Assembly: GCA_046570105.1 (NCBI GenBank)
Contig: JBKHVI010000049.1
Coordinates: 4,557-18,339, forward strand
Length of the DNA stretch: 13,783 nucleotides
Direction of reading: 5' to 3'
DNA from: Bacteriovoracia bacterium
GTDB taxonomy: Bacteria; Bdellovibrionota; Bacteriovoracia; Bacteriovoracales; Bacteriovoracaceae
Shown here piece by piece: positions 11,405-13,783 of this stretch. A program made the position numbers and the translations under genes. The notes below the pieces were generated by a model. It had not been told where the DNA came from. It was given only the letters and a program-made list of their open reading frames with translations, and made no database searches. Each line of letters begins with the position of its first letter. Positions within the stretch are counted from its first letter, which is position 1.

Positions 11405-12169
11405 ATGAAAACTGCTATTCTTATCACCGGTGCTGGCACTGGAATCGGTCGCGCCATGGCGCTCACACTTTCTCAAAAATTACCGGAGACCACGCTTATT
11501 TTGGCCGGCAGAAATCTCACTAATCTTGAGAAAACCCAAAGTGCTCTCAAAACAAATGCTCTATGTGTCTCGATGGATGTGACAGACAACAAAAGTATTC
11601 AAGCAGCAAAAAAACAAATCACCCAGAGTGGTCTCACCCTCAGTGCGCTGGTTATGAACGCCGGTGTTGGTGGTGAAAATAATTACGGCAAGGATGATCG
11701 TTGGGACGATATTCTTGCCACCAATCTCACCGGCCCTTATCAAGTCACCCAAGAGTTTCTTCCGCTCCTGCGTGCCAATAAATCAGCTTTTAAAAACATT
11801 GTTTTCACTTCATCCATTCTCGCGCGTCTTGGTGTGCCTCGTTACAGCGCCTATTGCGCTTCTAAAGCGGGAGTCTTGGGGCTCATGCGCTCTCTTGCGG
11901 CCGAGCTTGCCAGTGAAAAAATTCTCGTCAATGCCATTTGTCCGGGATGGGTGGATACCGACATGGCCCAACAGGGACTCAAGGGAATTTCAGAGGCGAT
12001 GGGTAAGTCGATGGCCGATACCACGCGAGAACAAATGAGCATGGTTCCCTTGCAAAAAATGAGTCGACCTGAAGAGATCGCCGAGTTGGTTTATTTCCTC
12101 GTCGGTGGGGTGCAAACCTCGATTACCGGCCAAAGCTTAGATATCAACAATGGTGCCTTGATGCCTTAA
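11405..12169 (+). CDS. Short-chain dehydrogenase/reductase (classical SDR, FabG-like)
   Basis: ITGAGTGIG, MDVTD, NAG, SS, YCASK, NAICPGWVDTDM, ITGQSLDINNG. Confidence 0.95.
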   Translation: MKTAILITGAGTGIGRAMALTLSQKLPETTLILAGRNLTNLEKTQSALKTNALCVSMDVTDNKSIQAAKKQITQSGLTLSALVMNAGVGGENNYGKDDRWDDILATNLTGPYQVTQEFLPLLRANKSAFKNIVFTSSILARLGVPRYSAYCASKAGVLGLMRSLAAELASEKILVNAICPGWVDTDMAQQGLKGISEAMGKSMADTTREQMSMVPLQKMSRPEEIAELVYFLVGGVQTSITGQSLDINNGALMP

Positions 12170-12291
12170 AGTTGCGGGTTAAGATTAGTGATTGGAAAAA
12201 ATTTCCAAAGAGCGGTTAAAAACTTCTAACGCAGGTTTAGTAGTCTTAGTTATTCTTAGTATTTAAGTATAAAATAAGTTTCTGTCAGTTT

Positions 12292-12324
12292 GCATAGATC
12301 ACCTCCCCAAGGGAGGTTCTATGC
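12292..12324 (+). promoter_or_regulatory. RBS/start-codon-sequestering hairpin of the putative toxin mRNA
   Basis: GCATAGA-tc-ACCTCCC-caa-GGGAGGT-TCTATGC: two 7-bp Watson-Crick helices separated by a 2-nt bulge, covering SD GGGAGG and ATG 12321. Confidence 0.7.
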
Positions 12325-12575
12325 TTTTTTCGATTGAGAAATGGGTTTTTACACGACATGCTTATCAGCGGATGCTCGAGCGCAATGTAAGCGAATACGA
12401 GATCGCACAAATCATCCGACAAAACGAAGTCATCATCATGCAGGGTGAGAAATATATTTTGGCGAATCGTTTCGACTCACGCAGTGATAATATGATTGCG
12501 ATTGTTATGCTTTCAGGTTTTCGCGATGAGTGGATTATATTAACTGTTATGATTAATTTTAAGGTGAACTCATGA
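12321..12575 (+). CDS. DUF4258-family protein, putative RelE/BrnT-like toxin
   Basis: FTRHAYQRMLERNVSEYEIAQII (HAxxRMxER signature) and C-terminal WIILTVM; strong SD; ATGA overlap with the next gene. Confidence 0.8.
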   Translation: MLFSIEKWVFTRHAYQRMLERNVSEYEIAQIIRQNEVIIMQGEKYILANRFDSRSDNMIAIVMLSGFRDEWIILTVMINFKVNS

Positions 12576-12766
12576 CCTATCCACAGGTTTATTTTGATGC
12601 CCGTCATGACCTTTTATCAGTCAAACTAGTCGCCGGAGTTGAGGCCAAATCATACCTTAAAGATGGTCACTTATTTTCGGAAGATGCAGAGGGTAGGATC
12701 ATTGAGATTCAAATTCTCAATCTGGCCCAATATTGCTCTCAATCTGAAGGCCCACCAGGGGCCTAA
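12572..12766 (+). CDS. DUF2283-family protein, putative antitoxin
   Basis: QVYFDARHDLLSVKL...EDAEGRIIEIQILN matches the YDxxxDxLYI...DxxGxIxGIEI pattern; 64 aa; translationally coupled to the DUF4258 gene. Confidence 0.8.
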   Translation: MTYPQVYFDARHDLLSVKLVAGVEAKSYLKDGHLFSEDAEGRIIEIQILNLAQYCSQSEGPPGA

Positions 12767-12852: not shown

Positions 12853-13783
12853 ATGAAATGGCTTTTAGTTTTGTTGCTGGGGCTTCACGCTGTTGCCTTC
12901 GCTCAACCACTCACGACTAACACGCCTTATGATCTCACATCGACACTAGGTGCACCCATCAGCGTGCCCGTGCGCTTTGATCTCACCGGCCGTGTTTCAT
13001 TTAAATTTTCTGCCGATGCTGCCACTTCTTTTCCACTGCAATTCCATGGCGCTTGGGAGTGGCAGCGCTACGAATTTATTCCCGCAGTCTATGGCATGAA
13101 CGAAGATTGGGTGGAAGCACCCAGTGATCTTGTACGTCTACAAGTGAAGCGTCACCGAGTCGAAGGTGGAGCAGGAGTGGGAAGCGCTGTTAAGTTGCTG
13201 TCGGATACTTTAGGTTTATCAGTCGCGCTGGTGCCATACAAAGGCGCAAGCTTTGAAACACGCGCTTTCAAAAAGCCCACCCGTGGATGGTACTCATTAC
13301 CTCATGAGCGCACTGATTGGGATGAATGGTCAGTGGGTGAGGGGCGAGATTACCAAGTGTATGGTGGCATTACATTTTCAGTCGGTGCGGCCTTTTATGG
13401 TGTTTCACTGGCACAAGCTCAGGCCACCAAACAGTCACGCTGGTTTCTCTCACTGGATAAAGTGTCTGATCAGTACATGCGCTTGCGTATCCGCATGGAT
13501 AATTGGAAAAAAGTGGGAACGACAATTGGTCCCATCGTCGCCAGTTGGGAAGCGGCACTTTTAAAATATTTTGATCATGAGCGCTCTTACTTGGTGGATA
13601 TGCATAACCCAGAGGCCTACGCTGCCGTCTTGGCGCTTTTCAAGGGACGTCTCGATGAATTGCAGACGGCGTCTGCCGTCCAAGAAGAAGAATCTGAGCG
13701 CATGTGGCAGGGCACTTATCATGCGCGCTATTTGGGTATTCCCTTTATCTATGGCCAGAGTACGGCTCGCGTTCGTTTGGAAG
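12853..13783 (+). CDS. Secreted hypothetical protein, 3'-truncated by window (not in ORF track)
   Basis: Manual translation is open from ATG 12853 to the window end (about 310 codons): MKWLLVLLLGLHAVAFA|QPLTTNTPYDL...WDEWSVGEGRDYQVYGGITFSVG...NPEAYAAVLALFKGRL. Clear signal peptide. Confidence 0.85.
   Translation, partial: MKWLLVLLLGLHAVAFAQPLTTNTPYDLTSTLGAPISVPVRFDLTGRVSFKFSADAATSFPLQFHGAWEWQRYEFIPAVYGMNEDWVEAPSDLVRLQVKRHRVEGGAGVGSAVKLLSDTLGLSVALVPYKGASFETRAFKKPTRGWYSLPHERTDWDEWSVGEGRDYQVYGGITFSVGAAFYGVSLAQAQATKQSRWFLSLDKVSDQYMRLRIRMDNWKKVGTTIGPIVASWEAALLKYFDHERSYLVDMHNPEAYAAVLALFKGRLDELQTASAVQEEESERMWQGTYHARYLGIPFIYGQSTARVRLE

Follow-up and report, generated by a model that had tools for sequence, protein, structure and literature searches.

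Results

A likely toxin-first gene pair with a buried start

The window analysed here is the whole 13,783-nt stretch of contig JBKHVI010000049.1 (positions 4,557 to 18,339) of a Bacteriovoracia bacterium, our query genome G000; positions count from its first letter. Downstream of an SDR oxidoreductase gene lie two small adjacent genes, and the start of the first is enclosed in a predicted stem-loop. The features concerned are as follows.

11405..12169, + strand: upstream SDR oxidoreductase gene, outside the cassette (Pfam; orthologue in G153)
12223..12233, + strand: motif conserved close to the cassette's left edge, common to G152, G135 and L026 and missing at the empty site of G151
12251..12275, + strand: AT-rich stretch with candidate −10 hexamers at 12251-12256 and 12268-12275; judged from its composition, a possible promoter and ribosome standby region
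12292..12324, + strand: RBS-burying hairpin (5′ arm 12292-12307, loop 12308-12310, 3′ arm 12311-12324; fold and covariation)
12297..12306, + strand: 10-nt match to the 16S rRNA 3′ tail, of which 12301-12306 is the anti-SD pairing with the SD; not kept in orthologues
12299-12300, + strand: 2-nt bulge of the hairpin 5′ arm (fold)
12311..12317, + strand: Shine-Dalgarno (SD) sequence of the toxin gene, inside the stem (sequence and fold; SD duplex −10 kcal/mol)
12321..12575, + strand: DUF4258 gene, 84 aa, predicted BECR-fold RNase toxin (Pfam, structure model, purifying selection)
12325..12330, + strand: T6 run, Leu-Phe codons directly after the stem; terminator-like tail in G000
12561..12566, + strand: SD of the partner gene, within the last toxin codons (RBS predicted open, 4.2 kcal/mol)
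12572..12766, + strand: DUF2283-like gene, 64 aa, likely antitoxin without HTH; its start overlaps the toxin stop (ATGA)

The 84-aa ORF belongs to DUF4258 (PF14076; 30.2 bits against a Pfam cut-off of 25), and its structure model (pLDDT 91.6) points to a ribonuclease toxin fold: RelE/YoeB/BrnT/ParE/MqsR/HigB-type toxin entries make up 17 of the best 18 fold matches, with Z of 6.9-7.1 for YoeB, RelE and BrnT and a best match at Z 7.1 (rmsd 2.6, 66 aligned), values that, lying below 8, count as moderate only. Foldseek returned no match to the model at E<=0.001, its best being HigB2 at 5e-3, and NCBIfam gave no match. The toxin gene evolves under purifying selection, with pN of 0.21-0.36 against saturated pS among orthologues. 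For the 64-aa ORF the match to DUF2283 (PF10049) is weak (13.9 bits, cut-off 23); 13 of the 14 aligned partner proteins match that family at E<=0.1, the best at 1.6e-5. The DUF4258/DUF2283 module named in the first-pass annotation is therefore sound for its first half, whereas its second half holds only weakly for the protein of the window and is carried by the aligned partners.

Two small adjacent genes (84 and 64 aa, with an ATGA overlap), one of them of a known toxin fold, are what a type II toxin-antitoxin system would present. The usual, not universal, type II feature of an antitoxin with a DNA-binding domain and operator autoregulation is lacking: none of the 14 aligned partners has an HTH. 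The small hydrophobic membrane toxin of type I systems is lacking as well, as the toxin model is alpha/beta and BECR-like. We conclude that 12321-12766 is likely a toxin-first toxin-antitoxin module of type II. In a sister clade, the partner bears a C-terminal HTH-like extension and the promoter carries direct repeats; these are tandem TGAC-containing repeats about 11 nt apart across the −35 region (L009, L011-L016, L018-L020, L022, L039, L040, L043, L044, L067, L068, L073), which are likely the operator of that clade.

The hairpin at 12292-12324 is predicted to form 7 bp, a 2-nt bulge and another 7 bp around a 3-nt loop, i.e. a 14-bp stem, whose 3′ arm carries both GGGAGGT (12311-12317) and the ATG (12321-12323) of the 84-aa ORF. 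Its energy of −19.8 kcal/mol (81% of the ensemble, z −5.4) was reached by none of 200 shuffles, and the RBS opening cost of 18.6 kcal/mol is equalled at only 21 of 2309 crude ORF starts genome-wide. The 14-bp stem over GGGAGG and the ATG, proposed from the letters in the first pass, is thus borne out by the fold, and with it a type I-like feature, an SD sequestered by an anti-SD in cis, is present here by prediction and covariation. The RBSs of partner genes are comparatively open: 4.2 kcal/mol in the window and 1.7-9.0 kcal/mol for the best-SD starts.

The hairpin travels with a mobile cassette

The hairpin moves with a cassette of about 590 bp, and two sites that lack the cassette lack the hairpin too. 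In G153, the SDR orthologue is 90% identical and the next gene follows after 93 nt, compared with 683 nt here; neither the module nor such a hairpin is present. In G152, G135 and the metagenome locus L026, the module occupies another site, after a divergent gene, and in G151 this second site is empty and the hairpin is absent. The left edge of the cassette falls near 12200-12223, so a promoter, if cassette-borne, would be expected within or close to the ~70 nt that precede the stem; a scan for consensus promoters gave no + strand call.

Homologues occur in 3 of 11 genomes of the genus, 33 of 237 of the family and 46 of 401 sampled genomes of the phylum; this patchy distribution (3/11, 33/237) and the empty sites in G153 and G151 are in keeping with a mobile type II module. 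Single-protein scans found no relatives in the genome contig set and none in viral contigs, and in a 5.8-billion set returned only the near-identical cluster. Among public runs, no RNA run carrying the sequence was listed, a result that is silent on expression. The 3′ end of a tmRNA gene is a common integration site; the G207 module (L034) follows an apparent tmRNA 3′ end and terminator, as judged by eye. Beyond the cassette, at 12853-13783, lies an open-ended ORF, conserved in G153, that encodes at least 310 aa, begins with a signal-peptide-like segment and matched nothing in Pfam. Broken DUF4258 genes adjoin partner genes at L023/L030 (G135), L008, L065 and L038; the lesions are a frameshift in a T run (G135), an internal stop (G024), two stops (G479) and, in G158, a gene flagged with two stops.

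Structure is conserved among orthologous leaders and sequence is not

The orthologous leaders of G000, G152, G135 and L026 all bury the SD and AUG, with folding energies of −19.8, −12.7, −10.9 and −11.4 kcal/mol. The four stems differ in length and sequence, arm spacing varies by 5 nt, and the primary sequence of the leader is poorly conserved; structure is conserved, sequence is not. RNAalifold shows both sides changed in 3 of 13 pairs, with G-U pairs also present, and in 11 of 12 arm swaps the foreign arm folds less stably on a given 3′ arm than the native one does (only the G152 arm on L026 departs from this), although G000, G152 and L026 are saturated at synonymous sites with respect to one another (pS 0.76-0.81). 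Covariation upstream of homologues had been named beforehand as a check, and the compensatory changes in three orthologous leaders answer it in favour of the hairpin. These leaders are four in number and of a single common origin.

Opening cost was compared with a null of swapped upstream segments, in which G000 upstream sequences were reused for every genome: it is 18.1 kcal/mol in G000 (0/150), 12.5 in G152 (4/150), 10.9 in G135 (4/150) and 8.1 in L026 (30/150, not significant, short window). Opening energy was chosen after the failure of an earlier duplex metric, which split the leader at −14 and under-scored short hairpins (P 0.49 for G135, 0.73 for G152), and was then kept for the out-of-family set. 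In a strain variant from the X5 run, many changes lie upstream of 12279; those listed within the hairpin include an insertion after 12306 and a deletion at 12311, and the listed changes would widen the loop and keep six SD pairs. Taken together, the RBS-burying hairpin at 12292-12324 is real and conserved, and the cassette that carries it is likely of type II.

These data also bear on a null reading, that the hairpin has no selected role and reflects common descent or a general stem-forming tendency of the genome. The 3′ arm is fixed in any case by the needs of the SD and ATG, the sample is four leaders of one origin, L026 is not significant and the G135 hairpin fronts a frameshifted toxin; against this, the 5′ arm, which is under no coding constraint, tracks the 3′ arm over a saturated synonymous distance, and the genome displays no excess of such stems after divergent genes. 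We consider an absence of role very unlikely.

A further reading takes the inverted repeat as DNA rather than RNA, either an operator or the mirrored start site of a minus-strand gene of 10 codons. On that strand G000 does have a 10-aa ORF (12263-12295) whose ATG at 12295 is preceded by a perfect SD (−11.7), and an ORF of this length recurs in G152 and G135; the minus-strand SD is lost in orthologues (−5.0, −2.6, +0.6), however, the ORF grows to 26 aa in L026, and an operator fits poorly with arm spacing that varies by 5 nt, with G-U pairs and with a partner that lacks an HTH. The mini-gene was rejected as not conserved, and the DNA reading as a whole is hardly credible.

The 16S-like arm is likely incidental

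The first pass had also noticed that the 5′ arm is identical to the conserved 16S rRNA 3′ tail. The identity itself stands: GATCACCTCC at 12297-12306 is the 16S 3′ tail in three of the five genomes searched, all three of the same family, the pattern search giving no match in G000 and G006. What does not stand is mimicry, i.e. a purposeful 16S copy acting, for example, as a decoy or as a cleavage site for an anti-SD-targeting RNase. The exact 10-nt match is the longest to the 16S tail among 55 hairpin leaders in the genome (the next has 8 nt), and the four nucleotides beyond the anti-SD have odds of about 1 in 256 before any correction; on the other side, pairing with GGAGGU dictates six of the ten nucleotides of GATCACCTCC and a further two are paired to the spacer, the match was noticed only after the fact, the 10-mer has three copies in the 3.0-Mb genome against about 4.4 expected, and the 16S-like arm is absent in 3/3 orthologues and in 2/2 unrelated hairpin leaders (longest upstream match 3-5 nt). 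Because no orthologue keeps such an arm, mimicry as a function was rejected and is, in our estimate, extremely improbable; the match is likely a by-product of SD complementarity.

No predicted switch, and a selected protein

The first-pass annotation had further proposed that the hairpin locks the toxin start and acts as a cis RNA switch, possibly a thermosensor. Predicted opening costs at 25, 37, 45 and 60 °C are 20.5, 18.1, 16.3 and 12.4 kcal/mol, so no melting is predicted below 60 °C and opening in the physiological range, as in an RNA thermometer, is not seen. When windows between −110 and +330 were folded, opening the RBS still cost 19-22 kcal/mol and no alternative structure competed with the stem; the most favourable fold with an open RBS lies 17.6 kcal/mol above it. 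A mutually exclusive structure of the kind that a riboswitch or attenuator needs is not seen, and Rfam returned for the leader no relevant match, only two chance snoRNA hits. A thermometer or riboswitch is therefore unsupported, and both the thermosensor and the alternative fold were rejected. A strict lock fares no better: the toxin is under purifying selection (pN 0.21-0.36 with pS saturated), so it is or was translated, and the block must leak or be opened. A CsrA site was likewise set aside, as the GGA lies in the stem in G000 and outside the loop in G152 and L026.

A regulated switch opened by a trigger (RNase cleavage of the 5′ arm, a small or antisense RNA, heat or a protein), in the manner of type I systems, has nonetheless some basis. 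A very high barrier in front of a protein under selection means that an opening route may exist; a promoter-like site on the minus strand (12562-12534, 10 of 12), facing back over the toxin gene, could yield an antisense RNA over the 3′ arm; and type I mRNAs offer precedent (PMC6733600; PMC13000454). Against it stand the missing alternative fold, the missing physiological melting and the lack of an Rfam match of note; loop and arm sequences are unconserved, which leaves no shared recognition motif; and the minus-strand site is not kept in the three orthologues, so that the antisense promoter was rejected. We judge a triggered switch decidedly unlikely.

Termination and the genome background

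Intrinsic (Rho-independent) terminators can overlap the RBS of the next gene, and in G000 the T6 run immediately 3′ of the stem gives terminator geometry. A terminator score is +21 in G000, −4, −8 and −35 in the orthologues, and −64 in both G207 and G172; a stable stem with an immediate U-run (U6), the mark of an intrinsic terminator, occurs in G000 only.

The background, composed of SD-bearing G000 genes from crude gene calls, sets this in context. An opening cost of at least 12 kcal/mol is found at 27 of 133 starts lying 30-100 nt after a same-direction gene (null 3.0) and at 14 of 210 lying at least 100 nt after one (null 4.3; the query is among the 14), compared with 5/347 at less than 30 nt (null 3.7), 4/57 at contig ends (null 1.3) and 5/330 after a divergent gene (null 9.3). 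Genome-wide, RBS-burying hairpins behave like 3′-end hairpins and are not special to toxins. Strong hairpins over SD and AUG in G000 are often without a U-run (e.g. C62:6921+, C63:5070+, C8:46606-, C46:15260-), and such hairpins in operons of this lineage are possibly dual elements, at once 3′ ends and translation dampers. Two related genes of ~205-224 aa with hairpins over the SD, C63:13448- and C4:84762-, look RAYT-type transposase-like by eye.

It could accordingly be proposed that the main job of the hairpin is intrinsic termination of cassette-promoter transcripts and of SDR read-through, a few bases into the toxin gene, with RBS burial secondary. The U6 directly after the stem and the score of +21 favour this, as do a U5 kept in G152 and L026 through CTT-TTT codons, where Leu-Phe replaces the Lys-rich N-termini of other homologues, and the enrichment of such hairpins only after same-direction genes, like 3′-end hairpins. 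However, all three orthologues score below zero, G207 and G172 lack a U tail, and termination at this point would cut off the partner gene too unless an internal promoter serves it, with none called on the + strand; the SDR orthologue of G153 has no hairpin behind it, by which a native terminator of the SDR gene was rejected. We regard termination as the main job as fairly unlikely. As the orthologues score below zero and follow divergent genes, termination is perhaps an added effect in G000 and not a conserved role; by the sequence downstream of the stem, the U6 tail may add termination in this genome only.

Several start arrangements around one protein pair

Thirty-six DUF4258 loci were entered and 31 scored; G135 was added later, and four were without an anchor or start. 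Seventeen of the 31 look leaderless: they lack an SD and have a TAnnnT hexamer whose end lies 5-8 nt upstream of the ATG (L002, L005-L007, L009, L013-L015, L018-L020, L022, L031, L039, L040, L043, L046); these loci are related and not independent. The same pattern occurs at 54 of 668 divergent genes of G000 (about 6-8%), ~16 of the 54 being background, with a sharp peak at 6 nt.

In the first set of SD-led loci, five of ten starts are buried (G000, G152, G135, G207, G172), two are ambiguous (L026, G205) and three are open (G085, G026, G083). The SD-burying hairpins of G207 and G172 are of unrelated sequence and lack U tails (each 0/150 under the null). Outside the family, 17 loci were entered and 13 scored, with none of three SD-led starts buried, which makes burial one option and not a rule; the proposition that all SD-led DUF4258 toxins are buried was rejected on this count. 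The protein tree places the open G085 next to the G000 clade (97/93), the rest being unresolved; with the HTH-less clade so poorly resolved, the number of hairpin origins is soft.

A candidate start for the partner recurs within the toxin gene. Among the 25 HTH-less loci whose partner could be recognised, 22 have an ATG in frame with the partner at the invariant Trp codon of the toxin (L003-L008, L026-L028, L030, L034, L035, L051-L057, L059, L061, L063, in the 3′ part of the toxin gene); an SD of −4.5 kcal/mol or better precedes it in 21 of the 22, and it is the sole ATG in range in 15 loci. Initiation there would give a double-coding overlap of ~13-16 codons and a similar N-terminal peptide, the SD being encoded by the Glu/Lys-rich loop of the toxin. 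This ATG is absent in G000, G152 and G057; the G000 gene has lost the one seen at the Trp codon in relatives.

Discussion

We propose that the hairpin is a fixed translational damper that holds the toxin low relative to an antitoxin with an open RBS, and put the probability of this reading at about 55%. It starts from what computation shows: the fold and its position, the covariation, the linkage to the cassette and a partner without a DNA-binding domain. The 5′ arm would be transcribed from a promoter in the ~70 nt upstream; folding during transcription would bury the toxin SD and AUG; ribosomes would reach the toxin start rarely, through brief opening, from the AU-rich standby stretch; and the partner would initiate independently at an open RBS of its own, so that antitoxin would be in excess with no operator autoregulation. 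In G000, the U6 tail would also shorten some transcripts. Relatives seem to meet the same need otherwise, mostly by leaderless toxin mRNAs and a strong partner RBS within the toxin gene.

The damper gains from G152, G135 and L026, where the module follows a divergent gene, a context without hairpin excess in G000. Several points weigh against it: the orthologous leaders are four and of one origin, L026 is not significant, burial is no family rule, the query itself sits after a same-direction gene, where RBS-burying hairpins are common in G000, and a barrier of 18 kcal/mol is large for a passive leak.

A wider proposal can be put forward, speculative and in our view quite unlikely as a whole: HTH-less, toxin-first DUF4258-DUF2283 modules would have swapped operator autoregulation for gating at the RNA level; the lock over SD and AUG would have arisen at least 2-3 times in this predator family; a trigger (RNA processing, antisense RNA, phage infection) would free the RNase; and the antitoxin would come from its own strong start in the toxin gene.

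The largely open-access literature covered contained no description of this arrangement and none pairing DUF4258 with DUF2283. Antitoxin excess in toxin-first type II modules has been described mainly through operators and additional promoters. In this family, translational solutions can be compared around one protein pair, namely an open SD, a buried SD, a leaderless-like start and initiation of the partner from within the toxin gene, and work on the hairpin-led cassettes would give a first handle on DUF4258 toxins. The gain is modest, because RBS sequestration is textbook and the ideas of 16S mimicry and a thermosensor fail.

The hairpin can be compared with several known systems. With the intrinsic terminators that overlap an RBS it shares, in G000, a GC-rich stem with a U-run behind it and a place after a same-direction gene; unlike them, it is cassette-borne and lies behind a divergent gene in three relatives, and only its G000 version scores as a terminator. 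RNA thermometers such as fourU and ROSE also pair an anti-SD over the RBS; the present hairpin differs from them in being far too stable (12.4 kcal/mol at 60 °C), in having no U-rich anti-SD and in having no Rfam match.

RBS sequestration is common in type I toxin mRNAs (PMC6733600; PMC13000454). As in the leaders of H. pylori aapA3/IsoA3 (PMC6733600) and of timPR, tisB and hok (PMC13000454), a stem-loop pairs an anti-SD with the SD and a block of initiation is to be expected; standby-site loading is a known route past such stems. Those type I systems combine a membrane peptide with an RNA antitoxin, whereas the module here pairs a predicted BECR RNase with a second protein. At our locus we found neither an antisense RNA nor long-range pairing, and no processing step or alternative fold, and the stem covers the AUG as well.

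By gene content the module compares with type II systems, in which, according to PMC7167474, the toxin is as a general rule translated less than the antitoxin, and in whose reverse-order modules extra antitoxin promoters are described. DUF4258 itself appears in a 2025 survey (PMC11980606) as a BECR-fold type II toxin family of unknown activity, undescribed, with the usual order antitoxin-toxin, and in a preprint (10.64898/2026.08.28.747851) in the Colicin-like BECR branch; the name DUF2283 has also been applied, in PMC4755241, to FseA-type activators. The product of the window passes the Pfam cut-off for PF14076, and in contrast to the order given in that survey, these Bdellovibrionota loci are toxin-first with a DUF2283-like partner. 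In common with higBA, mqsRA, hicAB, rnlAB and brnTA, as these are presented in PMC7167474 and PMC11980606, the module puts the toxin first, has a predicted BECR/RelE-like fold and a small overlapping partner, and needs antitoxin excess; those reverse-order modules are described as relying on extra antitoxin promoters and on operator binding by the antitoxin, whereas the partner here has no DNA-binding domain, and what control can be seen is an RBS hairpin, with a leaderless-like start instead in relatives.
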